Shown: in pieces, positions 3,594 through 59,554 of the stretch
Position numbering within the stretch: the first letter of the stretch is position 1
How the letters are laid out: every line of letters starts with the position of its first letter
Assembly: GCA_001443445.1 (NCBI GenBank)
Contig: LDXN01000001.1
Location: forward strand, 49,290-113,289
DNA length: 64,000 nt
Direction of reading: 5' to 3'
Source: Candidatus Dadabacteria bacterium CSP1-2
GTDB lineage: Bacteria; Desulfobacterota_D; UBA1144; Nemesobacterales; CSP1-2
The notes under the pieces: model-generated
Database searches by the model: none
Told to the model about the DNA's origin: nothing
The model's input: only the letters and a program-made list of their open reading frames with translations
Program-made: the position numbers and the translations under genes

Positions 3594-3697
3594 GGGTAGT
3601 CCAACAGTCTTGCTGGTGGACGGCAACGAGCAAGCATGTCCTGAGTAGTTCGATCAGACTCACCACAGGCTTAGTCGAAGGGACTCGTCGCCTACCC
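3594..3697. repeat. dispersed palindromic repeat (MITE family B copy) in truB-rpsO spacer
   Basis: Terminal inverted repeats GGGTAGTCC...CGCCTACCC. Internal 'CTTGCTGGTGG', 'GTCCTGAG' and 'GTCGAAGGGA' motifs are shared with copies at 20484-20612 and 34897-34966 (reverse orientation). Confidence 0.7.
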
Positions 3698-3766
3698 TAT
3701 GTTTCTATTATCCCTTTAGTAAATCAGGTATATATGCGTTCCATACTGAAAAAAGGAGGAATTTCG

Positions 3767-4036
3767 ATGGCTATTTCAAAAGAAGAAAAGCAGCAACTGA
3801 TTGGTGAATTCAGAATTCATGAGAAAGATGGCGGTTCACCTGAAGTGCAAGTTGCAATACTTACACAGGGCATTGAGGAGCTTTCAAAACACATTCAGTC
3901 AGCTCCTAAGGACTTTCATTCTAAGCGTGGGCTTCTTCAGATGGTTGGTAAACGAAGGAAGCTTCTTCGTTACCTCAAAAGATTGAGTCCTGGGAGGTAC
4001 CAGAATCTATTAGGAAAGTTAGGTCTTAGAAAGTAA
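3767..4036 (+). CDS. rpsO: 30S ribosomal protein S15
   Basis: 89 aa, 'MAISKEEKQQLIGEFRIHEKDGGSPEVQVAILT...'. RBS AAGGAGGA lies 7 nt upstream. Confidence 0.95.
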   Translation: MAISKEEKQQLIGEFRIHEKDGGSPEVQVAILTQGIEELSKHIQSAPKDFHSKRGLLQMVGKRRKLLRYLKRLSPGRYQNLLGKLGLRK

Positions 4037-4094
4037 AAAGCAAGATGCAGGATACACAATACATGCATCATTAATTTGAGGAGGTAGTATCATA

Positions 4095-6206
4095 TTGGTT
4101 AATGAATTAAGACGTATAAAGGCTCAGATATTTAGAAGGGAGCTAGAGATTGAAACGGGGCGATTAGCAAAGCAGTCTCATGGTGCTGTTCTAGCACGTT
4201 ACGAAGGGACTGCTGTTCTGGCTACTGTTGTAGCAGCTAATGAAAAGACAGAGGGTGAAGATTTTCTTCCTTTGACTGTAAACTACCAGGAAAAGGCTTA
4301 TGCGGCAGGAAAAATTCCTGGGGGATATTTTAAAAGGGAAGGGCGTCCAAGCGAAAAGGAGGTACTGACTTCAAGGCTTATAGACCGGCCTATCAGACCT
4401 CTCATTCCAAAGGATTTTACCTATGCTACTCAAATATTAGTTACGGTGCTTTCAGCGGATCGGGATAACGACCCGGATGTTCTTTCAGTGACAGCGGCTT
4501 CAGCGGCCCTTCTTGTGTCGGATGTTCCTTTTGATGGCCCAGCGGCAGCAGTGAGAGTAGGCCGAATAAATGGAGAGTTTATCTGTAATCCGACTAGAGG
4601 TGAACTTGAAAAAAGTGAGATGGATATAGTTGTAGCTGGAACAAAAGATGCGATAGTAATGGTTGAAGGGGGTGCAAATGAGGTACCTGAGCAAGATATG
4701 GTTGAAGCCCTTTTATTTGCGCATAGATGCATCCAGGAGTTCGTAAAACCTCAAGAAGACTTGGTGAGTGGATTAAGCATAGAGAAAAGAGAAGTACCTA
4801 CTCTAATTAGTGATCCTGCTCTTTCTGAAATATTGGTCTCATTTGCTAAAGAGCGACTAAGACAGGCTATAAGGGTATCATCTAAGGTTGAAAGAAGAGA
4901 AAGCATCCAAGCGGTATTGAAAGAAACCATTCAGACATTATCATCTGATTTTTCTGGAGATGAGAATCAAATTACTAAGTTATTCGATGCACTAAAGAGG
5001 GAGATAGTGCGTGAACTTGTAATTCAAGACAAAAGAAGGATCGACGGTAGGGATTATACGGACATAAGACCTATAAGTGGAGAGATAGGCTTTCTCCCAA
5101 GGACTCATGGTTCTGCCCTTTTTACAAGGGGTGAGACCCAGGTTGCGGTTATATCAACTTTGGGAACGACTTATGATGAGCAGAGAATAGATGCTCTTGA
5201 AGGGGAGCTGACAAAAAGATTTATGCTTCACTATAACTTTCCCCCATTTAGTGTAGGCGAGATTGGAAACCGCCTTGGTCCGGGTCGGAGAGAAATTGGG
5301 CATGGAGCCCTAGCCGAAAGGGCTCTTCTTTCGGTTCTTCCACCTAAAGAGAAGTTTCCTTATACGATTCGAGTTGTTTCTGATGTACTTGAATCAAACG
5401 GTTCCTCCTCAATGGCTACTGTTTGTGGAGGGAGTCTATCACTCATGGATGCGGGCGTTCCTATAAAAGCGCATGTTGGTGGAATTGCGATGGGGCTCAT
5501 TAAGGAAGAAGATCAATTCGTTATTCTTTCAGATATTCTCGGGGATGAAGACCAGTTGGGTGATATGGATTTTAAGGTTGCAGGCACTCTTTCTGGCGTA
5601 ACTGCGCTTCAGATGGATATTAAGGTTAAAGGGATTACTAAGGAGATACTCACAAAGGCGCTTCAGCAGGCATACGAGGGAAGGGTTTTTGTGATTGGAA
5701 AAATGAATGAAATAATTAGAGAGCCAAGGCCTGATATTTCATCTTATGCTCCACGAATACTTACGATTCAAGTAAAACCGGAGAAGATTAAGGACGTTAT
5801 AGGACCTGGTGGAAGGATGATAAAGAAGATAATTGAGGCAACGGGGGTTGCGATAGACATCGAGGAAAGCGGCAGGGTGAACATTGCATCTTCGAGTAAA
5901 GAAGCCTGTGATAAGGCCGCAGAGATGGTTAAAGAGATTGTACAGGAAATAGAGGTAGGTAAGGTATATCTTGGAACAGTTAAACGAATTCTTGATTTTG
6001 GAGCAATAGTGGAACTCTTCCACAATACAGACGGGCTTGTTCACATTTCAGAGCTTGCTCCAACTAGGGTGAGAAAGGTTTCAGATATTGTAAGAGAAGG
6101 GGATGAGATACTTGTAAAATGTATAGGTGTAGAAAATGACGGGAAAATTAGGCTTAGCAGAAAAGAGGCATTAGAGGAAAATATAGAGGATTATAGAAAA
6201 ACCTAA
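4095..6206 (+). CDS. pnp: polyribonucleotide nucleotidyltransferase (PNPase); TTG start
   Basis: 703 aa with two RNase PH domains, a KH domain and an S1 domain ('[20 protein letters not shown]'). GGAGG lies upstream of the TTG start. Confidence 0.9.
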
Positions 6207-6310
6207 GCGATTAGTCGTTAACCGTAAGTCGTAGTTCTTTAGAAAATCATCAGAGTAATGTAGCGGTGACCTTCAGGTCGCCATGTAGAGACGTGCCATA
6301 GTGAAGCATT

Positions 6311-6340
6311 GGCGGGGTTGGAAAACCCCGCCTATCTTTA
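6311..6340 (+). terminator. hairpin GGCGGGGTTGGAAAACCCCGCC followed by T-rich tract, downstream of pnp
   Basis: 10-bp GC-rich stem, 4-nt loop, then 'TATCTTTA'. A related hairpin occurs at 38180-38207. Confidence 0.55.
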
Positions 6341-6344
6341 ATTC

Positions 6345-7298
6345 ATGGAAGTCCTCATATCCAAAAATTCAGTGACAAAAGACAAACCCAAATTACTAGT
6401 TATCTTAGGTCCCACTGCAGTAGGAAAAAGTAAAGTTGGCATTGAGATCGCAAAAAGAATCGGTGGAGAAATCGTCAATGCCGACTCCCTTCAAGTCTAT
6501 AGATATCTGGATATAGGTACAGCAAAGCCGCTGAAAGAAGAGCATAAGCAAGTTCCTCATCATCTGATTGATATAATTCATCCCAACAAGGAATTTAACG
6601 CCGGGTTGTATAGAAAAACCGCGGTGGAAGTAATTAGAGATCTTCATAAAAAATCTACTAAGATGATTCTTGTTGGTGGGACTTATCTTTATGTTCGCGT
6701 TCTTCTTTATGGAATTATTGAGGGAATTTCCGCCGATATGGAAATTAGAGACCGACTTAGGAAGCTTAAATCTGCTTTTGGCATCTCTTACATTTACGAA
6801 AAATTAAAGTCTTTTGATTCTGAATCTGCTAGTCGGATTCATCCCAATGACTATGTAAGAATTGAACGGGCGCTCGAAGCTTACTATCTCACAGGATCAA
6901 GGATGTCAGAGCTTCAAGAGAAACATGGATTTAAAGAGAATGAGTACGAGGTTCTAAAGATTGGACTTTTTGAAGAAAGGGAGATTCTTAGAAAGAGGAT
7001 AGATGAAAGAGTTGATAGGATGTTAGAGGAAGGACTCGTCGACGAGGTGAAGAAACTCCGGGAGATGGGTTTTGGAAAAGATTTAAAGCCTATGCAGTCA
7101 ATAGGTTATAAGCAAATAAACCAATACTTGGATGGAGAGATTACAGTTGATAGGGCTATAGAATTAATAAAGCGTGACACAAAACGTTTTGCCAAGCGTC
7201 AGATGACATGGCTCAGAAAAGACAAGGATATACACTGGTATCACCTCCCCGAGGGTTTGGAGAAAATTATCAACGAGGCTGAAATTTTTCTAAATTAA
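6345..7298 (+). CDS. miaA: tRNA dimethylallyltransferase
   Basis: P-loop 'ILGPTAVGKS', 'DIGTAKP', and a C-terminal 'RQMTWLRK' typical of MiaA. Confidence 0.85.
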   Translation: MEVLISKNSVTKDKPKLLVILGPTAVGKSKVGIEIAKRIGGEIVNADSLQVYRYLDIGTAKPLKEEHKQVPHHLIDIIHPNKEFNAGLYRKTAVEVIRDLHKKSTKMILVGGTYLYVRVLLYGIIEGISADMEIRDRLRKLKSAFGISYIYEKLKSFDSESASRIHPNDYVRIERALEAYYLTGSRMSELQEKHGFKENEYEVLKIGLFEEREILRKRIDERVDRMLEEGLVDEVKKLREMGFGKDLKPMQSIGYKQINQYLDGEITVDRAIELIKRDTKRFAKRQMTWLRKDKDIHWYHLPEGLEKIINEAEIFLN

Positions 7299-7339
7299 AA
7301 ATTTATTTGAGTGAATAATCATACACTGTGTCATCAGTG

Positions 7340-7410
7340 GTTCGGGTTTCGTGATGCGTGCATAGTGAATCTTATATCAAATCACAAACCACGATCTACG
7401 AACCACGGTT
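7340..7410. repeat. REP-like 'CACGAA/TTCGTG' palindromic element (family F)
   Basis: 'AGTGGTTCGGGTTTCGTGAT' pairs with 'ATCACAAACCACGATCTACGAACCAC'. It shares 'AGTGGTTCG' and 'TTTCGTGAT' with the copy at 13088-13150. Confidence 0.6.
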
Positions 7411-7421
7411 CACTACTTAAA

Positions 7422-7796
7422 TTACTTTCCCAATATCATCTTTATTGAAACAATAAGTAGCAGTACGCCGAATATTCTCTTTAACATAGGGTCGGAAACA
7501 TGGTGAACAAGGACTGCGCCTAGATAAGCACCGATTATAAAACTCACTGCGATAAATGCTGCCATGTATAGATTAACATTACCTTCTTTAAAGTATTTTA
7601 TTGCTCCCAAAATAACAACCGGAGCTGTGAGAACTGCTAGAGAAGTACCCTGTGCCTGGTGTTGGGTGAGATGAAAAAAGTAGACCATGGCTGGAACCAT
7701 TACAAGCCCACCACCTATTCCAAAAAAACCACTTGCTATACCGGCTACTAAGCCTATAAGAACAGATCCAATTGTTACCATTTCTTTAACCTCCAA
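7422..7796 (-). CDS. TauE/SafE (DUF81, TSUP) family membrane protein, half-size (4 predicted TM)
   Basis: 124 aa: 'GFFGIGGGLVMVPAMVYFF...GTSLAVL'. It covers only one of the two repeats of full-length TSUP proteins. Confidence 0.65.
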   Translation of the reverse strand: MEVKEMVTIGSVLIGLVAGIASGFFGIGGGLVMVPAMVYFFHLTQHQAQGTSLAVLTAPVVILGAIKYFKEGNVNLYMAAFIAVSFIIGAYLGAVLVHHVSDPMLKRIFGVLLLIVSIKMILGK

Positions 7797-7947
7797 CTCG
7801 TATTGATACGCTATGATATTGGATAAACTTTAAGAGCTTAAAAGGGTTAAGCCATTCAAAACTATTGTTAGATTTAGTGCCTTTTCTCTTTGTTCAATTT
7901 TATAATATCAATTCTATAAATAAATCGTGGATTCAAAAAAGAATTGT

Positions 7948-8072
7948 CATTGCGAGCTTTGCGGTCCCCTAACTGCCCTCCCTTATTTATCCCTACCACA
8001 GATCCCAGCGAAGCAATCTCAACAACGGTCAAGAGACTGCTCGGGACTTCGTTCCTCGCAATGACAGGCATC
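7948..8072. repeat. MITE family A copy (TIR TGTCATTGCGAG / CTCGCAATGACA)
   Basis: Terminal inverted repeats plus an internal 'GCGAAGCAATC' motif. Related copies at 8921-9042, 22963-23135 and 59462-59554. Confidence 0.7.
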
Positions 8073-8108
8073 ATTATTCACAATCAAAAAATCGAATTGG
8101 TATAATTC

Positions 8109-8753
8109 CTACTGAACTTGCAATTTCAAGTCGTTACCTGACTCTCTATTTTGTAGTTGTTTGTAAATTGCTTCCGCCTCACTAGACTTACCCAATTTTT
8201 CTAGTGAGAATGCAATATGGAGTTTGGCTTGATTCCTATATGGATTTTTCTCTTTATCAAGTTTTGATAGATAATCTATTGCTTGTTGCAAGTTTCCGTT
8301 GTCAAAACTCGCTGTGCCTAAAGTAAGATATGCAGCATCATTAAGCATTGGATCCTTTACACCGCTCTTTAGAAAATCATTGAGCAGGTTTATAGCCTCG
8401 TCATAGTTTTCGGTATTGTAGTTAATTAAGGCTGCATAGAAAAGAGCTATCTTAGAAATATCGGCTCTGGGGTATTCTTTTTTTAAAGATATAAACTTAT
8501 TTAGTGCTTCTTCATAGTTTTCCTTTTGGTAACTTGCCATGGCTTCGCTAAAAAGGGAATTAGCAGCTAAACCGTATCTTTCATTAATAATAACTCCAAT
8601 TAAAGCTCCGGCTATTACTATTAGTATTGCACCAAAAACGATTAGTATTTTCCTATAATTCTCTGATGTAATAACGATTGCTTTAGCAATGAATTCCCTA
8701 AACCTATCCGGCTTTTTTAGTTCCTTTGGAGTTACCTTTACCTTTTTTGCCAT
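8109..8753 (-). CDS. membrane-anchored tetratricopeptide-repeat protein (YfgM-like)
   Basis: The N-terminus 'MAKKVKVTPKELKKPDRF' is followed by one TM helix and TPR-like repeats ('AEAIYKQLQ'). The longest ORF extends to 8783, but the MAKK start at 8753 is more plausible. Confidence 0.65.
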   Translation of the reverse strand: MAKKVKVTPKELKKPDRFREFIAKAIVITSENYRKILIVFGAILIVIAGALIGVIINERYGLAANSLFSEAMASYQKENYEEALNKFISLKKEYPRADISKIALFYAALINYNTENYDEAINLLNDFLKSGVKDPMLNDAAYLTLGTASFDNGNLQQAIDYLSKLDKEKNPYRNQAKLHIAFSLEKLGKSSEAEAIYKQLQNRESGNDLKLQVQ

Positions 8754-8920
8754 GCCGAAATTATATATATTAACTACTACCAACGCAAGTTGGTCTTGCC
8801 CTGAAGGTTATAAATAATAGTATGAAAGCAGATTTAAAGAAATGAAAAACACTGCAGCAAGCTGCAGGGTATCGGCGCAGAGACTGAAAAACTCTTTGGT
8901 ACAGCATTGACAATACCATG

Positions 8921-9042
8921 AACTGTCATTGCGAAGGAGTGAAACGACTGAAGCAATCCCTTGATTTATAAATGCAGAGTGGGTGTAAAGCACAAGTCAA
9001 GTGTTAGCGAAGGATTGCTTCGCTAGTGCAATGACGGTGGTA
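8921..9042. repeat. MITE family A copy
   Basis: 'CTGTCATTGCGAAGGAG...CTGAAGCAATCC...GGATTGCTTCGCTAGTGCAATGACGG'. Both the internal and terminal inverted repeats are present. Confidence 0.7.
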
Positions 9043-10602: not shown

Positions 10603-10626
10603 GTTTCAAATAGGAGGAATATAGCC

Positions 10627-11373: not shown

Positions 11374-11406
11374 TAAACTGGTCTAATTCGATAAAGTACG
11401 GTATAG

Positions 11407-13068: not shown

Positions 13069-13087
13069 ATCATATAGATTGTCTATG

Positions 13088-13150
13088 TGGAGTGGTTCGT
13101 GATTAGTGTTTCGTGATTCGAACCACGAGCCACGATTCACGAATCACGAT
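13088..13150. repeat. REP-like 'CACGAA/TTCGTG' hairpin element in oppA-oppB spacer (family F)
   Basis: 'TGGTTCGTGATTAGTGTTTCGTGATTCG' is an imperfect inverted complement of 'AACCACGAGCCACGATTCACGAATCACGA'. The element lies between the oppA stop and the true oppB start. Confidence 0.65.
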
Positions 13151-16439: not shown

Positions 16440-16530
16440 TAGTCCTGTCCTGAGCCGAAGCCCTGAACCCTTCGATACCTCAGGATAAACTCCGTGAAGG
16501 GTCTGTCGAAGGAATGGCGGTCCTACTGAT
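16440..16530. repeat. MITE family B-related repeat in oppD-oppF spacer
   Basis: 'GTCCTGTCCTGAGCCGAAG...TGTCGAAGGAATGGCGGTCC'. Shares the GTCCTGAG and TCGAAGG core motifs. Confidence 0.55.
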
Positions 16531-17507: not shown

Positions 17508-17587
17508 ATAGGAGAATAGGAATCAACTTGCAAATACCCTTTCTTGTATTATATTTTAGAAAACAAATTGTAGTTTAAAAATATAAA

Positions 17588-18103: not shown

Positions 18104-18296
18104 GATTAAATTTCAGACAAGAATTGACAAAAATGATCACGAATGAAAATAGGCGGGATGCAGGATACAAGATTCAGGATGCATGATACATGATAAAAGA
18201 TGTAACTTTCATGCATCTTGCATCATTTTATTCGTATAAATTCGTGTTCGTTTCTGCCTAAGTAGTTACGTTTAGAAGCTAAAAGAGGAGATTATA

Positions 18297-20460: not shown

Positions 20461-20483
20461 AGTAAGGGATGTTTGGTATAAAG

Positions 20484-20612
20484 CGGTCATGAGCAAGCCT
20501 GTCCCGAGTTCGGTCGAGGGAACTCGTGACCTACCCAATATGGGGAAATAAAATAAAAATCGGGTAGTCCGCCAGTCGTCTCGCCTGAGCTCGACGCAGG
20601 CTTGCTGGTGGC
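20484..20612. repeat. MITE family B copy (two abutting half-elements)
   Basis: 'GTCATGAGCAAGCCTGTCCCGAGTTCGGTCGAGGGAACTCGTGACCTACCC' followed by 'GGGTAGTCCGCCAGTCG...GCTTGCTGGTGG'. Confidence 0.65.
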
Positions 20613-20621
20613 TTAAGGAAA

Positions 20622-22962: not shown

Positions 22963-23135
22963 CTGTCATTGTGAGCACATTCACTTAGTTCAGTGTAAAC
23001 TCCGCGAAGCAATCTTACACGGGGTGTCATTCCGAACCTTGTCCTGAGCCGTGAGCCCTGAGCATGTCGAAGGGGCAGGGGAAGGAGCAGTGAGGAATCT
23101 CAATCAGATTGCTTCGGTTTCCTCAAATGACCAAA
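22963..23135. repeat. composite full-length MITE (family A ends + family B core)
   Basis: Order: GTCATTGTGAG, GCGAAGCAATC, GTCATTCCGAACC, GTCCTGAGCCGTGAGCCCTGAGCATGTCGAAGGGG, GATTGCTTCGG, CTCAAATGAC. The nested inverted repeats contain the motifs of both shorter families. Confidence 0.65.
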
Positions 23136-23280
23136 AGGACTCTGTGTTAGTATGACGATACCCTTCAGCTTGCTGTAGTAAGTTTCATTCCACAATCATT
23201 AAAACATTCCTAAATATTTTTCTCCTGTATGTTAAGATCAACAACTCATTATAAAATTGCCGGTTAAATAGGACTGATAC

Positions 23281-31635: not shown

Positions 31636-31672
31636 GTAGAGACGCATTGCAATGCGTCTCTACGTTATTTTT
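31636..31672 (+). terminator. intrinsic-terminator-like hairpin between frdA and frdB
   Basis: A perfect 12-bp stem GTAGAGACGCAT-TGCA-ATGCGTCTCTAC followed by GTTATTTTTAA. Confidence 0.6.
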
Positions 31673-33175: not shown

Positions 33176-33333
33176 AAAAACCCGTAAGTATTTAGCCACG
33201 AATTATCACTAATAAGCGGATTTTGGATTATGGAACATAGCGATTTCGGGTTTTGAATTGGAGAGTAAAACATTAGCTACAGAGATCACGAAGAACACAG
33301 AGAAAAGATTAAAAAATGAATTTTAGTTCGTAG

Positions 33334-33370
33334 GGGCGAACGGCCGTTCGCCCTAAAGGTTTGTTTTTTC
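33334..33370 (+). terminator. terminator hairpin GGGCGAACGGCCGTTCGCCC + T-run after frd operon
   Basis: A perfect 20-bp palindrome followed by TAAAGGTTTGTTTTTTCC. A related hairpin 'GGGCGAACCTTGCGTTCGCCC' occurs at 38044-38064. Confidence 0.6.
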
Positions 33371-34590: not shown

Positions 34591-34896
34591 TTCGGTGTTG
34601 TTTCTATTAATTTCCTTATTCACTTTAATGTAGCGGCGACCTCCGACCTCCATTCGACACGCTCCAGGACAGGTCGGGTCGCCATAAGGCATTGTAGGCA
34701 CGAACTTGTTCGTGCCAAAAATAGCACAGACAAGTCTGTGCCTACAATATTCGACAAGGGTAAAAGATGTAGTCACCATAAAGGACATGGGGAAGGCTAA
34801 AGCCTTCCACTACATTTGAAGAAAAAAGGTAGCGGAATCCTTATGACATTTGATTTGCTAAACAGGTAACAAGCTAAAAAAGGATAGGTAACGAAT

Positions 34897-34966
34897 CCCT
34901 TCGGCCAAGCTCAGGGCATGCTTGCTCGTTGCCGTCCACCAGCAAGACTGGCGGACTACCCTACCT
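34897..34966. repeat. MITE family B copy (reverse orientation of the 3594-3697 copy)
   Basis: 'CTCAGGGCATGCTTGCTCGTTGCCGTCCACCAGCAAGACTGGCGGACTACCCTACC' is the reverse complement of the 5' half of the 3594 element, with a few mismatches. Confidence 0.7.
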
Positions 34967-38337: not shown

Positions 38338-38420
38338 AAACCTTGAGGCTTCCATTGAGTCGCGGCATGGCCTGTCCTGAGCGTGGTCGAAGGGACGCTC
38401 CCAACCTGTCATACCCGAAT
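38338..38420. repeat. MITE family B-related repeat inside 694-bp noncoding region
   Basis: 'CGCGGCATGGCCTGTCCTGAGCGTGGTCGAAGGGACGCTCC'. It sits next to other hairpins: 38044-38064, 38180-38207, 38417-38441 and 38537-38560. Confidence 0.55.
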
Positions 38421-38640
38421 GAAGTTATCGGGTATCTATACTTTTTTGGATTCCCAATAAAGACGTTTGGGAATGACAAAGCAAAATGGGTATCGAAGGG
38501 ATGGTGTTCCTACCTGTCGCGGCACATTTTTTAGGTAAAGACGCAAAATTTTGCGTCTTTACTAGGAATTTCCGTTTTTCTGAATTCTTGCTTCTTTCTC
38601 GTTTCGATGTAAAATTAGATATTTAAACAGGAGGTCTTTA

Positions 38641-38879: not shown

Positions 38880-39000
38880 AAGATTCGTGAATCGTGATTT
38901 GGTGCTCGTGGTTTGTCCGACTGAGCCGTTTGTCCGGAGGCTTCGTCGTGAGCTCAGCCGAACGGCTCAAGACGAAGTCGAATCACGAAACCCGTACCAC
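38880..39000. repeat. REP-like 'CACGAA/TTCGTG' element with nested hairpins (family F)
   Basis: 'TTCGTGAATCGTGATTTGGTGCTCGTGGTTTG...CGAATCACGAAACCCGTACCAC' with an inner 'GAGCCGTT/AACGGCTC' stem. Confidence 0.55.
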
Positions 39001-39098
39001 TATTCACAAACCATGCACTATTCAATAAGTAATAACAGAGCTTTACAAATAAGCTATCATCGCCATATAATATAGAAAAATCATGGAGGTCACCTCAT

Positions 39099-45993: not shown

Positions 45994-46938
45994 TAGTAGG
46001 GACACGTTGCAACGTGCCCCTACCTCAGGTTTCTTACACATTCTCATAAAATCAAATACATCTTTTGTATTCTTAGGGATTCCACCCTGTGCTCCTAGAT
46101 AAGTGCAATTAATTGCAGCGGTAGCTGAAGCGAAATCTAAGGCCTTTTTTATCTCCCAATTTTTGAGCCATCCATAAAGAAGCGCTCCGTGGAATACGTC
46201 TCCGGCTCCTGTTGTATCTACGGCGTCAACTTTGTATGCCGGGGTTTTAATAAGTTCATCGTTATAAATTGTAAGTGAGCCTTTAGACCCTAGTGTTACT
46301 GTTGTAACCTTTGCCTTAAACTCTTTAAGCTTTTTTATTCCTTTAGTAGGATTATTTTCTCCTGTGTACTCTCTCATAAAGTCTTGGGAAGCTATAAACA
46401 AGTCAACTTTACCTTTTAGTTCGTTAATCCCATCAATATAGTTACCTGCATCCATTGAGACCGTAATCCCTAATTTCTTTGCGATGTTGGCAGCCTCGAC
46501 GTTAGCTTCCATAAACAGTTCGTCAAAGTGAATTGCCCTAGTTTGAGCTATCAGTTCCTTTTTTAGATCTTTTGGTTTAAGTGGAGTAATAGTCCCTTTC
46601 GACCAGAAGACCGTTCGCCTACCACTTTTTTTTTCAATTGGAATAATAGAAAGTTGGGTTTTTTTGGATTTTTCTTTGATTAAACCTGAGGTATCTATGC
46701 CTTCGTTTTTAAGGTCTTGGATCAAGATTCTTCCAAGATCGTCATCTCCTACTTTCCCTATAATAGCGACTTTTAATCCTAAACGTGCAAGAACCAAAAG
46801 CGCAGTCGCTGTAGGTCCTCCGCCTCTAATAGTAACATCCTCAAATTCTACCTTTCCTTCAACGTCGGGGAAATAACGAACTTTCCCGAGGTAGTCAACA
46901 CAGACCTGACCAATTCCAACTACGTCAAGCCGGCTCAT
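45982..46938 (-). CDS. PfkB-family carbohydrate/nucleoside kinase (ribokinase-like)
   Basis: 318 aa with the '[12 protein letters not shown]' anion-hole/ATP motif and a GG dipeptide near the N-terminus. Substrate unknown. Its 3' end overlaps dnaJ by 12 nt (convergent). Confidence 0.8.
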
Positions 46939-46939
46939 A

Positions 46940-47035
46940 TGTTTTTATTTCGGTACGAATACACACGAATTTTCACGAATGAAGATTTTTTTTAGCAAAA
47001 ATAAATAATTCGTGCTCATCTGTGTCCATTCGTGG
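46940..47035. repeat. REP-like 'CACGAA/TTCGTG' element (family F) between the MoaD-like gene and the kinase gene
   Basis: 'ACGAATACACACGAATTTTCACGAATG...AATTCGTGCTCATCTGTGTCCATTCGTGG' are inverted complements. Confidence 0.55.
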
Positions 47036-47320: not shown

Positions 47321-47321
47321 T

Positions 47322-53157: not shown

Positions 53158-53482
53158 CTTTTTGAGTGTTTGTTCATCGCGTATATCTCTATCAGCTAAA
53201 ATTTCCTGAGTGATAGTGCCAGTATATTCAGGGTATATGTCAATTTCCCCTTTTAATAGCGCACTCCAGAGTACACGGGTTCCACCAAGCCCTTTAAGAT
53301 GTTTAACATTAGGCTCTTGGGTTCTAGCGAGTTGTGCTACTATTTCTCCAAGAATTACGGATTCGGTGAACGCCTTCGAGCCTACCTTTATTCGGTTACG
53401 GGCGGGCCTGCAGTAGTGTTAGCTATGAATAAAAGCGCTAATATTAGCCCCGTTCCGAAAAGTACCATGGATAAGGAACACG

Positions 53483-53508
53483 TAGGGGCATAGCATGCTA
53501 TGCCCCTA
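53483..53508. promoter_or_regulatory. 26-bp perfect palindrome GTAGGGGCATAGCATGCTATGCCCCTAC in opu ATPase-permease intercistronic region
   Basis: A perfect inverted repeat. Its core decamer TAGCATGCTA recurs at 51652-51661 in the TA-module promoter region. Confidence 0.5.
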
Positions 53509-53538
53509 CAATAAGAAATCAATCGACAAGTCATGCTA

Positions 53539-54297
53539 CTATTCTCCTAGAGATTCTAATGGGCTACGCTGTGCATTAATGAAACTTGTAACAAATGGAT
53601 CGGTAGGTGTGCGAACAAAATCCATTAGTGTTCCTTGCTGAACAATATGTCCATCTCTAATTAGAACAATTGAATCTCCAAAATAACCTGCCTCACCAAT
53701 ATCATGAGTAACCATTACTACGGTTTTGCCAAGTGTATGAAAAACTTCCTTTAGATCGTTCTGAAGCTCAAAACGAATTAGAGGGTCTAGTGCGCCAAGA
53801 GGTTCGTCAAGTAAAAGGGTGTCTGGGTCTAATATAAGTGCCCGCATTAAGCTAACGCGTTGTCTTTGCCCTCCGGAGATTTGGACTGGATAGCGATCAA
53901 GTGCATCAACGGGAAACTTTGTTAATTCACATAGTTCAACTATACGCTTCCCGATACGATCATTATCCCAACCAAGGTATTTAGCCATTAATGAAACATT
54001 TTCTTTTGCGGTGAGGTGTGGGAAAAGGCCACCATCTTGTATTACGTAGCCCATTCTTCGACGAATTGTAAACAAATTAATTGGTGTGAGCATTTCATCT
54101 TTCACATAGACGTTACCCTTGTCAGGTTTTATAAGTCCTATAATGAGGCGTATCAGCGTGGACTTACCGCAACCGCTAGGACCGATAACTACCGTCGTCT
54201 TATGAGGAAGGATTGTTAAATTAATTGAATCAAGCGCTCTTGTAGAGGCGTATGTTTTAGAGATGTTTTCTAGTTTTATCATGCTACGTAGCATCAA
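53539..54297 (-). CDS. betaine/choline-family ABC transporter ATP-binding protein (no CBS domains)
   Basis: 252 aa: Walker A 'GPSGCGKST', signature 'ISGGQRQRV', Walker B 'LLLDEP'. OpuAA/OpuCA-like, but short. Confidence 0.85.
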   Translation of the reverse strand: MMLRSMIKLENISKTYASTRALDSINLTILPHKTTVVIGPSGCGKSTLIRLIIGLIKPDKGNVYVKDEMLTPINLFTIRRRMGYVIQDGGLFPHLTAKENVSLMAKYLGWDNDRIGKRIVELCELTKFPVDALDRYPVQISGGQRQRVSLMRALILDPDTLLLDEPLGALDPLIRFELQNDLKEVFHTLGKTVVMVTHDIGEAGYFGDSIVLIRDGHIVQQGTLMDFVRTPTDPFVTSFINAQRSPLESLGE

Positions 54298-54377
54298 ATG
54301 TTTATCATGATTTGCAAAGGAAATAAAGTGACTTTAGTGGCTTTTGTCATAACGATTCTGTAATTAGACATGTATCC

Positions 54378-54429
54378 GGTCACGAGCAAGCCTGCCCTGA
54401 GTCAGTCGAAGGGACCCGTGACCTAGCCC
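54378..54429. repeat. MITE family B minimal core copy
   Basis: 'GGTCACGAGCAAGCCTGCCCTGAGTCAGTCGAAGGGACCCGTGACCTAGCCC'. A 7-bp stem GGTCACG/CGTGACC encloses the GTCCTGAG...TCGAAGGGA-type core. Confidence 0.65.
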
Positions 54430-54547
54430 AATATTGTACTGTGGTTGATCTTGCAAACTAATGTTAGATAGTACGCTAGTCTTGCTGGCTAGGTTATGTT
54501 ATGAATGCTGATGGTTTAAATTTTACAAGCCAAAACTCGGAACAGGA

Positions 54548-55063
54548 TTACCACTCCTCTGTTCCTGGTTCTCCCTTGAAGGGTCCCACAATGTCGCTAG
54601 TGATCCAGCCACCGTAATAAATTCCCGGTTGAGGTATCACTCTTTCATCATCAACATAGCATGCATCCATTTTTTGAGGGTAGAAAGCAATATGATCTTT
54701 GATCGATTCATATCCAGGGGTAGGGTCGGGATAAGTCCATGCGGCGTTAGCAGCTTTTTTGTCGCCAACTATTATAGTGTAATAGGAAGCAACACCCTTC
54801 CACTCACACACTGTCTTCTTCCTAGTTCTTATAAGGTTCTCAGTCTTAATATCTTTAGGAGGTATGTAATAAACAGGGGGACCGCTGGTTTCTAATACCC
54901 TTTTTGCGTTGCGCGTTTCTGCAATTACCACGTTGTTAAAGATCACCTTGATGAGCTTTGTCGTGTCCTCAATGCGGGGAGGTCGTGGGTAGTCCCAAAC
55001 AGATTCCTGACCCGGTTCTGGTTGAATACGTTTTGGTTCCATGATAATCTGCCATTTTGCCAC
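54548..55063 (-). CDS. DUF427 domain protein (copy 2), downstream of egtD
   Basis: 171 aa with 'KKTVCEWKGVASYYTIIVGDKKAANAAWTYPDPTPGY', the same signature as copy 1. Confidence 0.7.
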   Translation of the reverse strand: MAKWQIIMEPKRIQPEPGQESVWDYPRPPRIEDTTKLIKVIFNNVVIAETRNAKRVLETSGPPVYYIPPKDIKTENLIRTRKKTVCEWKGVASYYTIIVGDKKAANAAWTYPDPTPGYESIKDHIAFYPQKMDACYVDDERVIPQPGIYYGGWITSDIVGPFKGEPGTEEW

Positions 55064-55214
55064 AAAGACACTAAGACACGAAGGTTGAATCTTGAATAAA
55101 GTAGCCGGAATTCTGACTGCAGAATAAGGGTTATGAGTAGTGTCTTCTTGATTCTGAATATACTTTTATAACTCATATTATTCTTTGTGCCTTTGTGCCT
55201 TAGTGGCTGAATTC

Positions 55215-56195
55215 TTACCGGACTGAAAGATATTGCACGCTGAATTTTCCATCGTCATCAGTCCAAACATGTTTGACTTTAAAGACGTCAGAAACCAGTT
55301 GCTCAAAATCTTCAAGTGTGTACTTATAAGAATATTCGGTCAGGATTCTTTCACCCTTTTTGAAGAAGATTTCGTTGTTATTAATATGTACATACTGATT
55401 TCTTAAGCTTGTAAGATGCATCTCTATTCTTCCTTCGGAACTATTATAGAAAGCATAGTGTCTCCACTGAGCTAGATCAAAATCGGCATCCAGTTCATGA
55501 TTGAGCCGCCTAAGTATATTCAGGTTGAATTCGGCAGTAATCCCGTTCTTATCATTGTAGGCAGCCTCTAATACACTTCTTTCCTTTTTAAGATCTACAC
55601 CGATCAAAAGTCCGCCTGTCTTATCTGCTATTCTTGCAATTAGCTTAAGGAAAGTAGTTGCTTCTTTAGGGGTAAAATTTCCGATTGATGAGCCTGGATA
55701 ATATATAACCTTATGTGACCATGGGAGGTTTAAGTAAGGTAAATCCAATGGCTGAGTATAGTCTGCGCATACAGGCACAATCTTAAGTTGAGGATAATCT
55801 TTTGCAAGTGTAGTTACGGATTTCATTAAGTGCTCGGCGGAAATATCAACTGGTACATATCCAGCGGGTTCTTCAAGATGATCAAGTAATAACCGTATCT
55901 TTTTGCTGCTACCACTGCCGAGTTCTATTAAAAGACATTTTTTGCTTAGGCAAGCTGAGATTTCATCAATATATTTGTTCATAATAGTCATCTCGGTACG
56001 TGTGAGATAGTATTCTTCCAGTTCGCAAATCTGATCAAATAGCGCCGAGCCTCTTTCGTCATAAAAGAGCTTACAGGGGAGTTGCTTTTGCAGTTTTTGA
56101 AGACCTTCTGTCACCTCGGCTAGAAGATTTTCATCTTCGGGTTCAAATTTTTGTAGTGTTAGTAAATTGTTATTCATCGTTCGACTGAGGCTCAC
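55215..56195 (-). CDS. egtD: L-histidine N-alpha-methyltransferase (ergothioneine biosynthesis)
   Basis: 326 aa aligning along its length to mycobacterial EgtD: 'FYDERGSALFDQICELEEYY', 'LIELGSGSSKK', 'YYPGSSIGNFTP', 'ITAEFNLNILRRLNHELDADFDL', 'EGRIEMHL'. Confidence 0.9.
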   Translation of the reverse strand: MSLSRTMNNNLLTLQKFEPEDENLLAEVTEGLQKLQKQLPCKLFYDERGSALFDQICELEEYYLTRTEMTIMNKYIDEISACLSKKCLLIELGSGSSKKIRLLLDHLEEPAGYVPVDISAEHLMKSVTTLAKDYPQLKIVPVCADYTQPLDLPYLNLPWSHKVIYYPGSSIGNFTPKEATTFLKLIARIADKTGGLLIGVDLKKERSVLEAAYNDKNGITAEFNLNILRRLNHELDADFDLAQWRHYAFYNSSEGRIEMHLTSLRNQYVHINNNEIFFKKGERILTEYSYKYTLEDFEQLVSDVFKVKHVWTDDDGKFSVQYLSVR

Positions 56196-57507
56196 GAACG
56201 TCTTTAGCGAGCCTTATTCCCATGAATTGCCATCTTGCATTAGGTGGGAAAAAATTACGATATGTTTTTCTAATGTGAGACATTGATGTGGCGCAGGAGC
56301 CTCCGCGAAGTACCATTTGATTACTCATGAATTTTCCGTTGTACTCTCCTAATGCGCCCGGTAGGGTTTTAAATCCAGGATAGGGGATGTATGGACTCTG
56401 CGTCCATTCCCAAACATCTCCAAACATTTGCAAAAGTCCACTGCTTGAAGAATCTTGATTTAGAGCATGAGGATGAAAGTTGCCACTCTCTACAAAATTC
56501 CCTTCCATTGGTAGTTTAGATGTAGCAATTTCCCATTCAGATTCAGAAGGAAGTCTTGCACCTATCCAGCGGGCATAGGCATCTGCCTCGTAATAGCTAA
56601 CATGGGTGACGGGTTCGTCTAGATCAACTTCACGCATACCTGAAAGTGTAAAATACCACCAATGCCGATCTCTCTTTTCCCAATAAAGTGGAGCTTTCCA
56701 ATCATTTGCCTCAACGGCATACCACCCGTCGGATAACCAGAGCTCTGGTCTTTCGTAACCGCCATCTTCCATAAATGCAAGATACTCACGATTGGTCAAC
56801 AAGCGATATGCTAATTTAAAACTATTTAGATACACCTTATGACGAGGGGATTCATTATCGAAGGCAAAACCATTTCCGTCGTGCCCAATCCAATATACCC
56901 CTTCAGGGAATTGGACCCATCTCACTCCGGGTATTGTAAAAGGCCTAGGGCTATCGTGTTTAATATGAAGATAGACCGGATGGAGGGGATTAACTGAGAA
57001 CACATGTTTAATATCTGTAAGTATTAATTCTTGATGCTGCTGCTCATGATTGAGTCCGATTTCGATTACAGGTGCAATTTCCTCCATTTGTGCCAGATCA
57101 GCCTTTTCAAGAAATTCCAACATGTGCTGGTCTACATAATGTCTATAGGAATATACCTCTTCTACAGTTGGTCTTGATAAAAGCCCGCGTTCTGGGCGAG
57201 AGTGCCTTTTCCCAACCTGAACATAATAAGAGTTAAAAAGGTAGTTATACTGTGGATGTAGTGACCTATAGTGTTTATTTGCTTTATTAAGTATGAATGT
57301 TTCAAAGAACCAGCTTGTATGCGCAATGTGCCATTTTGTCGGACTAACATCAGGCATTGATTGAATGACGTAATCCTCTGTGGCAAGTGGTTTGCAAAGG
57401 GTCTCAGTGAATTCTCGAACGATTTGATATCGTTCGGCTAAAGAACTGTTAATAGAATTACTTTGATCTTTTTCTTCAACTTTTGTTATGTTTTTTTTCG
57501 TATTCAT
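56170..57507 (-). CDS. egtB: ergothioneine biosynthesis sulfoxide synthase EgtB (DinB_2 + FGE-sulfatase domains)
   Basis: 445 aa: DinB-like N-domain with 'HEQQHQELILTD' and a C-terminal FGE-like domain 'GDVWEWTQSPYIPYPGF...RGGSCATS'. Overlaps egtD by 26 nt. Confidence 0.9.
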   Translation of the reverse strand: MNTKKNITKVEEKDQSNSINSSLAERYQIVREFTETLCKPLATEDYVIQSMPDVSPTKWHIAHTSWFFETFILNKANKHYRSLHPQYNYLFNSYYVQVGKRHSRPERGLLSRPTVEEVYSYRHYVDQHMLEFLEKADLAQMEEIAPVIEIGLNHEQQHQELILTDIKHVFSVNPLHPVYLHIKHDSPRPFTIPGVRWVQFPEGVYWIGHDGNGFAFDNESPRHKVYLNSFKLAYRLLTNREYLAFMEDGGYERPELWLSDGWYAVEANDWKAPLYWEKRDRHWWYFTLSGMREVDLDEPVTHVSYYEADAYARWIGARLPSESEWEIATSKLPMEGNFVESGNFHPHALNQDSSSSGLLQMFGDVWEWTQSPYIPYPGFKTLPGALGEYNGKFMSNQMVLRGGSCATSMSHIRKTYRNFFPPNARWQFMGIRLAKDVREPQSNDE

Positions 57508-57651
57508 CTTCTTCTCACTTATTTTATATCAAATTTTCCTTGTAAATACAAGTGTACTTCTGTGCATTATCTTTACTTTAATTTCTAACTTCTTTAGGTA
57601 TTATTTATTGAAGTTTGAAAAATATATAGCTGCTATTATCAATCTATCCTT

Positions 57652-58563
57652 ATGAAAAATAATAGAATCCATGTTGTTCTTTTCATCATAACTTTGGGTA
57701 CAACTTTTTTAGCCGGGTTTCTTCAAGGTGGGAATGTCACAAGCGGAATTGCATTTTCAGCAGCCCTCATATTTATTCTAGGCGCGCATGAAATGGGGCA
57801 CTACGTTTACGGGAAAAGGTATGGTGTTGATATTACACCTCCATATTTCATCCCAGCACCGCCGGTTATTTCTCCTATAGGTACATTTGGCGCCTTTATA
57901 AAAATTAAGTCTCCCATAGCTACCAAAAGAGCCCTTTTCGACATAGGAATAGCAGGTCCTCTGGTAGGTATTTGTGCGGCAATTCCTGTAATTATAATAG
58001 GAATCAAGCTATCGAGTGTTGTTGATCCTTCGAGTCGCGAATTTGAGGGTGGGATGACCCTCGGTTCACCTTTAATTTTCTCTTTTCTTGCGGATAGTTT
58101 TTTTGGGAAGGTTCCGGATGGTAAAGACCTTCTTCTACACCCCGTTGCATTCGCAGGATGGATCGGACTCTTTGTCACTGCGCTTAACTTGATTCCAGCA
58201 GGACAGTTGGACGGCGGTCACATTATGTATGCCCTTTTTCCAAGAAAATGGCATCGTCGTGCATCTCTTTCTATGATTTTTCTCCTACTCATACTTGGTA
58301 TTGGCACTCAGCCGATTATACAACTATTACAATCGCTATGGAGAGGAATACCACTCGAATCATATAAAGATATATTTACCTTTGATGGATGGCTCGGATG
58401 GGTTATGTGGGCGATGCTACTTTCTATCATGGGGACAAGACACCCGCCTACTATGGATGATAATATTCCGCTTGATGGTAAGAGAAAGCTTTTGGGTGTA
58501 ATAGCGCTTCTTGTCTTTATCGGCTGCTTTACACCTGTGCCAATAGGTTTACCGAAATCGTAG
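57652..58563 (+). CDS. site-2 protease (M50) family membrane metalloprotease
   Basis: 303 aa, polytopic, with 'GAHEMGHYVYG' (HExxH) and 'NLIPAGQLDGGH' (LDG motif). Confidence 0.75.
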   Translation: MKNNRIHVVLFIITLGTTFLAGFLQGGNVTSGIAFSAALIFILGAHEMGHYVYGKRYGVDITPPYFIPAPPVISPIGTFGAFIKIKSPIATKRALFDIGIAGPLVGICAAIPVIIIGIKLSSVVDPSSREFEGGMTLGSPLIFSFLADSFFGKVPDGKDLLLHPVAFAGWIGLFVTALNLIPAGQLDGGHIMYALFPRKWHRRASLSMIFLLLILGIGTQPIIQLLQSLWRGIPLESYKDIFTFDGWLGWVMWAMLLSIMGTRHPPTMDDNIPLDGKRKLLGVIALLVFIGCFTPVPIGLPKS

Positions 58564-58617
58564 AAAAGAAGACTCGTTGTAACAGAAGTTCAGCGTTTCT
58601 CAAATCAGGGTTAACTT

Positions 58618-59352
58618 ATGAGTGATAAGGTTGGATTAATAACGGGCGGTGCTCGTGGTATTGGACGCGCAATTGCCCTTGCCTTGGCTAACCAAGGTTG
58701 GTCTATTGCTATTTGCTATCGAACCAGTGAAAATGAGTCTATAGAAACCATGAATGAAATAGAGCGAAAAGGATCCCGTGGCCTTCGAGTGCGGTGTGAC
58801 GTATCTGATCCCAAGGCGGCTCAGGCCTTTGTAAAGCAGGTCGAGAATGAGTGGGGACATATTGATGCCTTGATTAACTGTGCGGGGCCATACCACCGTG
58901 TTAATCTTCTCGATGAGACAATCGAAGGGTGGCACTCGATGTTTGACAATAATCTCCATCCAGTTTTTTACCTAAGCCGAGCTGTCGTTCCTGGTATGAA
59001 GGAGCGTAAATGGGGCAGGATCATAAATTTTAGTATGGCTAATGCAGATCAGCTTGTTGCTCAACCTGAAATTACAGCACACTATATAGCCAAGGCTGGA
59101 ATACTAATCTTAACGCGTTCACTTGCGCGTGTTCTTGCTCCATATGGAATAACAGTCAATTCTATATCTCCTGGTTTTATCCGTTCAGGGAGCGCGCCGG
59201 ATGAGGAGCTTGAAAAAATGGCAAAGAGGATCCCCGCTGGTTATGTAGGAAGTATTGAAGATGCTGTAGCAGTCGCATCCTTCCTTCTATCTGAAGAAGC
59301 GGGATATGTGAATGGTGCTAATATCCAACTTAGTGGTGCTTGGGGTATATAG
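58618..59352 (+). CDS. SDR-family oxidoreductase (FabG-like)
   Basis: 'GGARGIGRAIA', 'NCAG', and a 'YIAAKAG' catalytic Tyr/Lys motif. Confidence 0.8.
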   Translation: MSDKVGLITGGARGIGRAIALALANQGWSIAICYRTSENESIETMNEIERKGSRGLRVRCDVSDPKAAQAFVKQVENEWGHIDALINCAGPYHRVNLLDETIEGWHSMFDNNLHPVFYLSRAVVPGMKERKWGRIINFSMANADQLVAQPEITAHYIAKAGILILTRSLARVLAPYGITVNSISPGFIRSGSAPDEELEKMAKRIPAGYVGSIEDAVAVASFLLSEEAGYVNGANIQLSGAWGI

Positions 59353-59461
59353 TCGGAAGTTTAAAAATAACTTTTAAAAAGTATTTGAAAAATTTCTAGA
59401 TTAGGGTATAGGTATTTCACTGAGTATTTCTCATCAGCTTACGATAGGTATAAATGATGAC

Positions 59462-59554
59462 CCGTCATTGCAAGTAGAGTATTGAGAGAAGAATCAGGGT
59501 ATTGGTGCTGGGAAGGTGTTTGCCTTTCTCCCCTTGGATACTTGCCATGACGAA
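59462..59554. repeat. short MITE family A-like element upstream of gltA
   Basis: A 14-bp inverted repeat CGTCATTGCAAGTA / TACTTGCCATGACG with one mismatch. It shares the 'GTCATTGC' terminal motif. Confidence 0.5.

Follow-up and report, generated by a model that had tools for sequence, protein, structure and literature searches.

Tagged hairpin repeats in a 64-kb stretch of a Candidatus Dadabacteria genome: probable mosaic clusters of two known superfamilies of repetitive extragenic palindromes

What are the short, palindrome-rich repeats that recur between the genes of a 64,000-nt stretch of the genome of Candidatus Dadabacteria bacterium CSP1-2 (contig LDXN01000001.1, positions 49,290 to 113,289; hereafter "the window", with a G+C content of 41.6%), and how are they related to one another? 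A first-pass annotation, made from the sequence alone, had taken them for deletion derivatives of one composite element of about 170 bp, located at 22963-23135, and had described this element as similar to the miniature inverted-repeat transposable elements (MITEs). Here, we give preference to a different answer: the window probably holds mosaic clusters of individually tagged hairpins from two known superfamilies of repetitive extragenic palindromic (REP) elements, the CGTC-tagged and the GTAG-tagged REPs, and not one MITE family. We refer to the CGTC-tagged units as "T1", to the GTAG-tagged units as "T2", and to a short module that occurs in the loops of both as "the core"; loci and contigs used for comparison are designated by L numbers.

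The motif strings quoted in the annotation are found, on inspection of the sequence, where it had placed them, and the objection that they might be low-complexity coincidences is met by self-BLAST alignments that reach well past 8-10-mers: positions 3594-3645 match the reverse complement of 34910-34961 at 94% over 52 nt (E=2e-15), and positions 54377-54434 match 20484-20541 at 85% over 59 nt (E=7e-9). Gauged against dinucleotide shuffles of the window, GTCGAAGGGA with at most one mismatch is found at 12 sites, compared with 3.2 expected (0 of 100 shuffles reach 12), and GCGAAGCAATC at 4 sites, compared with 0.95 expected; GTCATTGCGAG occurs exactly at 2 sites and with one mismatch at 3, its excess at two mismatches being weak (18 vs 11.8). 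The modular, hairpin-forming nature of the repeats, which had been proposed from the motifs, is borne out by the anatomy of the units, by their folds and by two covariance models, one of T1, built from IMG/VR copies only, and one of T2 and the core, built mostly from other genomes. The T2/core model matches 20481-20541, 34877-34937, 54374-54433, 3623-3698 and 20557-20617 at E<=2e-10, and 2056-2081 and 38354-38412 at about 3e-5. The DNA folds of pairs and single hairpins beat those of shuffled sequences, with z from -1.8 to -4.35; those of 54378-54429 (z=-1.1), 23026-23095 (z=+0.7) and the free-standing cores are no better than shuffles.

The canonical T1 unit, as seen in 120 unrelated IMG/VR contigs, measures 26 nt, GTC-ATTGC-GA-GC-GNA-GC-GAA-GCAAT-C, and is followed by CAG or TC; a 32-nt variant is also present, and the census comes to 183 copies across the 120 loci. 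The inner GC-GNA-GC mini-stem occurs in compensatory variants (AC..GT, GG..CC and GT..GC), and all 21 inverted pairs found in IMG/VR have their tags outside and are spaced by about 23 nt. The same tags-outside arrangement is seen in all four pairs of the window (7946/8065, 8925/9035, 22965/23131 and 38408/38477). An unpaired (C/T)GTC tag is located directly 5' of the palindrome (TGTCATTGCGAG at 7945 and 8924, TGTCATTGTGAG at 22964, TGTCATTCC at 23025, GTCATACCCGA at 38408 and, on the minus strand, GTCATTCCCAA at 38477), while the stems start with AT and are followed by a C or CCA tail, i.e. ATTGC..GCAAT-C(TC/CC), ATTCCCAA..TTGGGAAT-CCA and ATACCCGA..TCGGGTAT-C.

The first of these pairs consists of a plus-strand unit at 7946-8018, in which the exact end motifs GTCATTGCGAGC and GCGAAGCAATC enclose a 49-nt loop insert (T1 model E=4.6e-6, via the identical copy L001:13846-13930), and of a degenerate minus-strand unit, GTCATTGCGAGGAACGAAG..GCAGTCTC, at 8029-8065 (model match 8029-8071, E=0.05; z=-1.9 for the fold of the pair). 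In the second pair, a plus-strand unit of the 32-nt class, GTCATTGCGAAGGAGTGAAACGACTGAAGCAATC, at 8925-8958 (match 8919-8964, E=7.5e-7) is separated by a 53-nt spacer from a short minus-strand unit, GTCATTGCACTAGCGAAGCAATC, at 9012-9035 (match 9007-9041, E=1.5e-3; z=-3.1). The third pair is opened by a long plus-strand unit at 22965-23014, where GTCATTGTGAGC and GCGAAGCAATC enclose a 27-nt insert, ACATTCACT..AGTGTAAACTCC (E=4.5e-4, via the identical copy L193:5993-6054), and is closed by GTCATTTGAGGAAACCGAAGCAATC on the minus strand at 23107-23131 (match 23101-23137, E=0.07). The fourth, at 38408-38477, is absent from the first-pass list and has been recovered by a tagged-hairpin scan; it is a canonical CGTC-tagged REP pair (z=-3.25; weak T1 model match), with GTC-ATACCCGA..TCGGGTAT-C on the plus strand at 38408-38435 and GTC-ATTCCCAA..TTGGGAAT-CCA on the minus strand at 38450-38477. 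The 49-nt and 27-nt inserts are both located exactly within the GNA loop, and the 27-nt insert recurs in Dadabacteria-like contigs (L204, L213). A 34-nt inverted repeat (85%), which contains the hairpin CTGCAG-CAAG-CTGCAG, occurs at 8841-8874 and 23156-23189; since it sits just outside two T1 pairs, it looks like another recurring cluster module.

The T2 hairpin has the form NNNACGAG-CAAG..-CTCGTNNN'-CTACCC, is accompanied by a CCACCAG sister, and forms inverted pairs of an A unit, NNN-ACGAG-CAAG(A, or C plus core)-CTCGT-NNN'-CTACCC, and a B unit, GTCCRCCAG-CAAGA-CTGGYGGAC-TACCC; on the opposite strand, both begin with GGGTAG, followed by a hairpin of 8-9 bp. The loop of most A units is occupied by the core, 27 nt long. 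The GGGTAG/CTACCC tag adjoins the hairpins at 3594-3697, 20484-20612 and 34877-34966, and CTAGCC adjoins the hairpin at 54378-54429. The pair at 3594-3697 (plus strand, tags outside; z=-3.0) consists of GGGTAG with the B hairpin TCCAACAG-TCTTG-CTGGTGGA, followed by the A hairpin GGCAACGAG..core..CTCGTCGCC with a core loop of 28 nt, and by TACCC (E=4.6e-11 for A and 0.022 for B). The pair at 20484-20612 (plus strand, tags inside; E=2.9e-19 and 1.7e-10; z=-4.35) combines an A unit with a CCCGAG/GAGGG core at 20484-20536 and, after a 25-nt spacer, a minus-strand B unit with a CGTC/GACG core variant at 20559-20612. The minus-strand pair at 34877-34966, again with tags outside, joins an A unit with core to a B unit at 34930-34966 (E=6e-17 and 0.23), and a single A unit with core is located on the plus strand at 54374-54433 (E=3e-15).

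The stems of the A units covary: in an alignment of 31 distinct A units from genome and metagenome scans (alignment A3), 97.3% of the cells are paired, compared with 23-46% when the 3' partners are slid, and five pairs carry changes on both sides (pairs 6-50, 7-49 and 8-48 in 3, 9 and 14 sequences). The outer stem occurs as GTCAC/GTGAC, GGCAAC/GTTGCC, GGTTAC/GTAACC and GACAAC/GTTGTC. Dadabacteria-like contigs hold 30 T2 matches in 149 kb, i.e. about one per 5 kb. A strand-specific G-T wobble is doubtful, as it rests mainly on the core pair 22-41, which may belong to a TGYC tag and not be a true pair.

The composite at 22963-23135, the proposed master copy, resolves into three separately tagged hairpins: the long T1 unit on the plus strand at 22965-23014; a CGTC-tagged hairpin, GTCATTCC..GGAATC (GTC-ATTCC...GGAAT-C), on the plus strand at 23026-23095, recognised by its motifs, with a core at 23040-23075 in its loop (weak core match at 23056-23074); and the T1 unit on the minus strand at 23107-23131. 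Local alignments of the composite with every other copy cover 7-22 nt only, and most of their scores lie within the range of shuffled sequences, which speaks against a master copy with deletion derivatives. Elsewhere, the short and the long form of a unit are found next to each other: L150 holds the short GTCATGCT-GAGC-GAAGACGA-AGCATGAC beside its form with the core inserted after GAGC, and L132 holds GTCACGAG-CAAGA-CTCGTGAC-CTACCC adjoining its core-bearing form. In L213, the units follow one another as T1 (plus), T1 with core (minus) and long T1 (plus), i.e. in an order and orientation different from those of the composite. Since short and long forms stand side by side and the units are reordered, loop insertion and shuffling appear to have shaped the clusters, not deletion from a master.

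The core is a module of 24-27 nt, CTGYCCYGAG-N3-4-GYCGARGGRA, and is hosted by the loops of T2 A and B units, by the hairpin at 23026-23095 and by a GTAGCGGCGACC hairpin at 34634-34684, which the first-pass list had not included. This last host is a minus-strand REP hairpin, GTAG-CGGCGACC...GGTCGCC, of a type that also flanks a RAYT (REP-associated tyrosine transposase) gene in L135, and the core in its loop, CTGTCCTGGAGCGTGTCGAATGGA, is degenerate (z=-2.7). Free-standing cores are located on the plus strand at 16444-16514, where CTGTCCTGAGC and GTCGAAGGAA are separated by a 50-nt central insert with GGATAAACTCCG (weak T2 model match, E=2.1), and at 38365-38395, GCCTGTCCTGAGCGTGGTCGAAGGGA (motif matches; T2 model E=4e-5); the insert motif TAAACTCC of 16444-16514 is common to L141 and 22965-23014. 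In alignment A3, the CCYGAG/GARGG positions covary (19 T-A, 11 C-G, 1 other). The core reads as a compact hairpin, in which a short CCY/RGG helix would be followed by flanking GA/GA, i.e. two G-A/A-G positions, and by G-Y-NNN-G-Y-C, a G-C pair with a small loop. This design equals that of the T1 loop and T1 and the core are therefore inferred to be related modules; in agreement with the kinship that the first-pass annotation had assumed, the GTCATTGCGAG hairpins and the GTCCTGAG...TCGAAGGGA core do appear akin, with the loop module GA-GC-GNA-G(Y)C-GA in common. A hammerhead or other ribozyme has been considered for CCTGAGC..GTCGAAGGG and rejected, as the conserved CUGANGA/GAAA positions misfit and no Rfam model matches.

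One core is intragenic: on the minus strand at 2056-2081 (T2 model E=2.9e-5), it lies within an nrnA-like DHH/DHHA1 gene (1621-2631), to whose protein it contributes exactly 8 in-frame codons (24 nt), LRLGSGQA. The insertion is absent from the Thermotoga maritima phosphodiesterase TM1595 (TmPDE, 5o1u) and from the 11 closest representative homologues (11 of 11), one of them at 66% identity; as far as these sequences tell, it is a derived 8-codon insertion. It falls within the DHH domain, just ahead of the DTGSF motif.

Outside the window, a 27-position core pattern with a GAGCAAGC lead has 30 exact matches in contigs of one genome per species, for a chance estimate of about 0.06, and its hosts include Nitrospina, Pirellulales, Anaerolineae, Verrucomicrobiae, Bacteroidota and the candidate phyla radiation. 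The core is found in T2-type context in Dadabacteria, Thermodesulfobacteriota and 'Deltaproteobacteria' metagenome-assembled genomes (MAGs), and in T1/NTS-type context in Nitrospina, Pirellulales, Sedimentisphaerales, Anaerolineae and Cyclobacteriaceae; in IMG/VR, it also occurs in NTS-like hairpins, e.g. GTCATTCCCGCG-CCTGCCCTGAGCGCAGTCGAAGGGA-GCGGGAAT, and between many other variable stems. String searches of the literature with the core sequence have found no paper, and the cross-phylum core is possibly the sole new part of what we describe.

Related species differ by the gain or loss of repeats. Contigs of one uncultured species match the window at 99-99.8% identity; more distant relatives, at about 91%, retain the copy between fabD and fabG at 20484-20612 (L195) and the 54.4-kb copy (L197). 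L197 bears a T2 pair matching window positions ~53392-53543, where the window has none; in L195, a T2 cluster is part of 1.2 kb of additional sequence between oppF and yceD; and synteny with these relatives stops where the window has the composite. The extra segment of L195 (13078-14327) corresponds to window positions 17508-17525 and contains a small open reading frame that resembles, by eye, a HicB-type antitoxin.

Which enzymes might handle such hairpins? The Neisseria NTS, CGTCATTCCCGCGMAVGCGGGAATCYRG, and related SRM hairpins flank the gene of a single-domain GIY-YIG nuclease, Ssn (Chenal et al. 2025, PMC11893778). According to that study, Ssn binds the hairpin solely as single-stranded DNA, and its cut falls upstream of the hairpin, at a distance of a few nucleotides; the GTC that precedes the palindrome and the C that follows it are critical, and the loop can be dispensed with. 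A search with a consensus query has yielded a family of at least 8000 Ssn-like proteins. T1 arrays lie no more than 200 nt from an Ssn-family gene in L186 (Flavobacterium beibuense), L174, L351 (Tamlana agarivorans), L349 and L352, and the Ssn-family gene of L150 is flanked by a core-bearing hairpin and its short version. A GTC-tagged perfect hairpin is present within 250 nt of the gene in 26 of 40 Ssn loci, on both sides in 17 of the 26, and the density of such hairpins is 4.2 per kb near the gene vs 0.94 further off. In L352, the gene stands between two direct copies of a mosaic of about 200 nt, composed of NTS-like and T1-like units (1290-1500 and 1800-2000), an arrangement that resembles a gene cassette bounded by repeat clusters and is a close parallel to the clusters of the window.

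Of the RAYT genes in related MAGs, those of L135 and L147 score as REP-associated tyrosine transposases, above and below the NCBIfam cut-off, respectively. T2 adjoins the RAYT gene of L147 on one side only, and we have rejected this adjacency as a sign of partnership and regard it as incidental, given that a 92% homologue in L228 and the 3' end of the L147 gene are flanked by GTAGGGGCACG REPs. Separate from T2, the window contains 28-nt, mostly perfect GTAG...CTAC palindromes, e.g. GTAGGGGCATAGCATGCTATGCCCCTAC, at 31636-31663, 38535-38562, 53482-53509, 45996-46023, 33330-33353 and 34693-34748; as the same type, GTAGGGGCACG..CGTGCCCCTAC, flanks RAYT genes in L228 and L147, these palindromes look like cognate RAYT REPs.

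In the mechanism that we propose, the units would be kept and spread in trans, via single-stranded DNA intermediates, by hairpin-specific enzymes, Ssn for the GTC-tagged and RAYT for the GTAG-tagged units. By analogy, T1 units would be bound and cut, as single-stranded DNA, by an Ssn-type GIY-YIG nuclease whose gene lies elsewhere in the genome; T2 units belong to the GTAG-tagged REPs, a class linked to RAYT tyrosine transposases; that this genome encodes both enzymes, and that they act on the present copies, is what we infer. The clusters may arise by repeated insertion and recombination beside or within existing hairpins, and the core would have entered loops of either repeat class as well as free intergenic DNA and, in a single in-frame case, a gene; inserts would be tolerated in loops because these are not read by the enzymes that recognise the hairpins. 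Where hairpins lie inside operons, they probably act on the 3' ends of mRNAs as a side effect, as is known of REPs.

Several observations weigh against this reading. With regard to class membership, the CGTC-1 to CGTC-4 families combine stems of 8-9 bp with loops of 4-5 nt (PMC3733652), whereas T1 has a 5-bp stem with an internal loop, GA/GAA and a GC-GNA-GC mini-hairpin; the SRM pattern, HGTCWYN(0-2)YYVSBRHN(0-5)WNVSBRGN(0-2)RNCYNB, has 0 matches in the window vs 0.28 expected, and canonical T1, read by hand, cannot satisfy its YY position. With regard to the enzymes, the 64 kb of the window and about 600 kb of contigs with T2 contain neither Ssn nor RAYT, except for RAYTs tied to other REPs: for those of L135, L147 and L228, the flanking REPs are of the GTAGCGGCGAAC.. 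or GTAGGGGCACG..CGTGCCCCTAC kind and not T2, and no RAYT flanked by T2 has been found among the RAYT loci of related MAGs. A search for GIY-YIG genes by regular expression and tblastn, covering the window and 120 core-bearing IMG/VR, 30 genome and 34 metagenome loci, was positive only in L150, and protein searches returned no Dadabacteria Ssn among the best 120 of about 8000 matches. An Ssn-like gene is present in just 1 of the 120 T1-bearing IMG/VR loci, a rate that is uninformative because the repeats far outnumber the genes. With regard to mobility, four 99%-identical strains show no presence/absence difference at the elements, their only indels being heptamer repeats and one 24-nt hairpin, and insertion boundaries are not definable from the 91% relatives, whose flanks are too diverged.

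The alternative that survives best gives the leading part to the core, as a mobile or enzyme-recognised mini-element of its own with a separate partner protein, for which T1 and T2 hairpins would merely be favoured landing sites. Its presence in the loops of T1, NTS-like, T2 and GTAGCGGCGACC hairpins, on its own and, inserted exactly and in frame with 24 nt, within the nrnA-like gene, its conservation across many phyla between variable outer stems and the silence of the searched literature on its sequence all suit this explanation. We nevertheless think it rather unlikely: the centre of the core, GAGC-GNA-G(Y)CGA, equals the T1 loop, the core starts with TGTC or TGCC and may thus be a minimal CGTC-type unit, and no associated gene is found in 120 core-bearing IMG/VR loci. 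Equally tentative is the broader notion of a self-contained, structure-constrained mini-element, common to many phyla, that lands in unrelated hairpin loops, intergenic DNA and genes; if it were true, the core would rank with the smallest known insertional modules of DNA, or would be the hairpin recognised by a further single-stranded DNA enzyme, and as an independent module it would offer a tractable case of tiny hairpins that spread between phyla and into genes.

Somewhat less probable still is a role chiefly at the RNA level, in which the units would protect 3' ends, be sites of processing, attenuate transcripts between the genes of an operon or give small RNAs, with their spread being secondary. 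Many REPs have been argued to work as RNA (Di Nocera et al., PMC3733652) and stabilisation of upstream mRNA is known for REPs; the stems described above do covary and include some G-T pairs, and several copies lie within operons (truB|rpsO, oppD|oppF and fabD|fabG). However, the orientation of T2 A units relative to the flanking genes is unbiased (9 same/same, 9 opposite/opposite), and a primary cis-acting RNA role is therefore disfavoured; G-T and A-C mispairs in the outer stem, counted on alignment A3, are balanced between the strands, the hairpins are not followed by a T-tract, and one copy lies in frame inside a gene. No Rfam 15 covariance model matches the window at the gathering threshold, and the sole match at E<=5 is to an unrelated miRNA model elsewhere in the window. 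The gain and loss of copies between species likewise argues against a fixed regulatory role.

Least of all do we credit the view from which we started, one MITE family with its master at 22963-23135, internal deletions and an IS200/IS605- or IS630-like transposase elsewhere, which is not supported in its specifics: inverted pairs do give ends similar to terminal inverted repeats (GTCATTGCGAG...CTCGCAATGAC), no transposase, RAYT or GIY-YIG gene is present in the window, in line with the non-autonomous nature that had been claimed, and copies come and go between related species, but the inverted ends exist only through the pairing of units and not as MITE termini, the pairs have no target-site duplications at their ends (flanks AATT/AGGC, AACT/GGTG and AACT/CAAA), the copies are not similar over their whole length, the 26-nt short unit is the canonical form across unrelated contigs, long forms are short forms plus a loop insert, T1 and T2 differ in stems, tags and tails, the composite is a set of independently tagged hairpins that L213 arranges differently, and no transposase with matching ends is found in any locus examined.

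The gene map on which the first-pass annotation relied agrees with annotation by Pfam: rimP-nusA-infB-rbfA-nrnA-like-truB | rpsO-pnp, the opp operon, plsX-fabD | fabG-acpP-fabF, and tricarboxylic-acid-cycle genes with sucC | sigma-70-family factor, followed by dnaK and rpmE; the polynucleotide phosphorylase and DnaK of the window are the Candidatus Dadabacteria MAG proteins KRT67076.1 and KRT67104.1. The neighbours that it had named are thus recovered (truB|rpsO, oppD|oppF, fabD|fabG and sucC|sigma-70-family factor), the first three of these sites lying within operons. Its statement that all copies are intergenic holds for the 10 copies that it listed (10 of 10), and fails for the additional core copy at 2056-2081. 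Its copy at 59462-59554, presented as one that keeps the outer modules, is a doubtful member: a long hairpin at 59464-59551 (z=-2.6) has GTCATTGCAAG/CTTGCCATGAC ends, contains no GCGAAGCAATC module and matches the T1 model at 59531-59557 only (E=8.3).

Other small repeats are also present. Runs with a period of 7 nt (TTCGTGA/CACGAAT, GATACAN) are located 5' of genes at 7329-7413, 13085-13150, 38880-38916, 38978-39008, 46946-46983, 18227-18264 and 4035-4065, and their length varies by strain: L003 has 7 nt more at 4065, and L004 has 14 nt less at 13091-13104. Strain L004 also has a 24-nt hairpin, AGGCGGGACTTTCCAGTCCCGCAT, at window position 6309, where the window has none; similar GGGACTTTCC/GAGACTTTCCAGTCTC hairpins adjoin T2 in L194, L201 and L144 and may be a further small repeat family. 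In L206, otherwise 99.4% identical, about 116 nt are missing at 38886-39002, i.e. the heptamer runs and a GC-rich hairpin 5' of fusA; identity falls to 93.9% after this segment, which suggests either a breakpoint of recombination between strains or a chimeric assembly.

With the assignment that we favour, the GC-rich intergenic repeats of Dadabacteria are placed in the GTAG/CGTC REP framework; repeats of this kind break metagenome assemblies and spawn spurious small open reading frames. In addition, the common hairpin GTCATTGCGAGCGNAGCGAAGCAATC adjoins Ssn-family genes yet escapes the SRM pattern, and pattern-based censuses therefore undercount Ssn-repeat pairs; the range of candidate single-stranded DNA nuclease specificities is correspondingly wider.

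Among known systems, MITEs such as the Correia elements and the cyanobacterial Nezha share with the repeats of the window their short, non-autonomous and intergenic character and, when units are paired, their inverted ends; the units of the window differ in being single tagged hairpins, without target-site duplications, whole-length similarity or the ends of a cognate transposase. The Rickettsia palindromic elements, which partly belong to CGTC-1 and CGTC-4, resemble the core of the nrnA-like gene as in-frame palindromic insertions, but the insert is here only 24 nt long, is a single case in the window and has no sequence similarity to them. The GTAG-tagged REPs and REPINs are said, in work attributed to Nunvar (2010), Bertels and Rainey (2011) and Ton-Hoang (2012), to go together with RAYT tyrosine transposases; the class has a GTAG tag at one end of a hairpin of 5-13 bp, and T2 resembles it in GGGTAG followed by an 8-9-bp hairpin, in a stem kept by compensatory changes, in extragenic siting, in abundance within a lineage and in tags-outside and tags-inside pairs of two different units, and differs in the 27-nt core that most A units bear in the loop and in that the RAYT genes of related MAGs are flanked by other GTAG REPs.

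The closest parallel to T1 is offered by the CGTC-tagged REPs. In the division of REPs into GTAG-tagged and CGTC-tagged superfamilies (Di Nocera, De Gregorio and Rocco 2013, PMC3733652), CGTC units are marked by a (C/T)GTC tag, an AT start of the stem and a CCA tail, tags-outside pairs predominate, intragenic copies occur, and no enzyme was known for the class as of 2013. These REPs, including dRS3/NTS, are like T1 in tag, AT-starting stem, C or CCA(G) tail and tags-outside pairs, and like the window in their mosaic intergenic clusters and known intragenic copies; the GTC head and the CCAG tail of T1 equal those of the Neisseria NTS, CGTCATTCCCGCG..GCGGGAATCYRG, and the association with Ssn-family genes is paralleled by the T1 arrays that flank such genes in Flavobacteriia and other contigs. 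In contrast to the CGTC families, T1 often has loops enlarged by 27-50 nt or by the core, and only the pair at 38408-38477 has CGTC-like stems of 8 bp in the window, with loops of 9 nt. Judged by these shared features, T1 is a putative variant of the CGTC-tagged REP and NTS-SRM class, and not one of its listed members.

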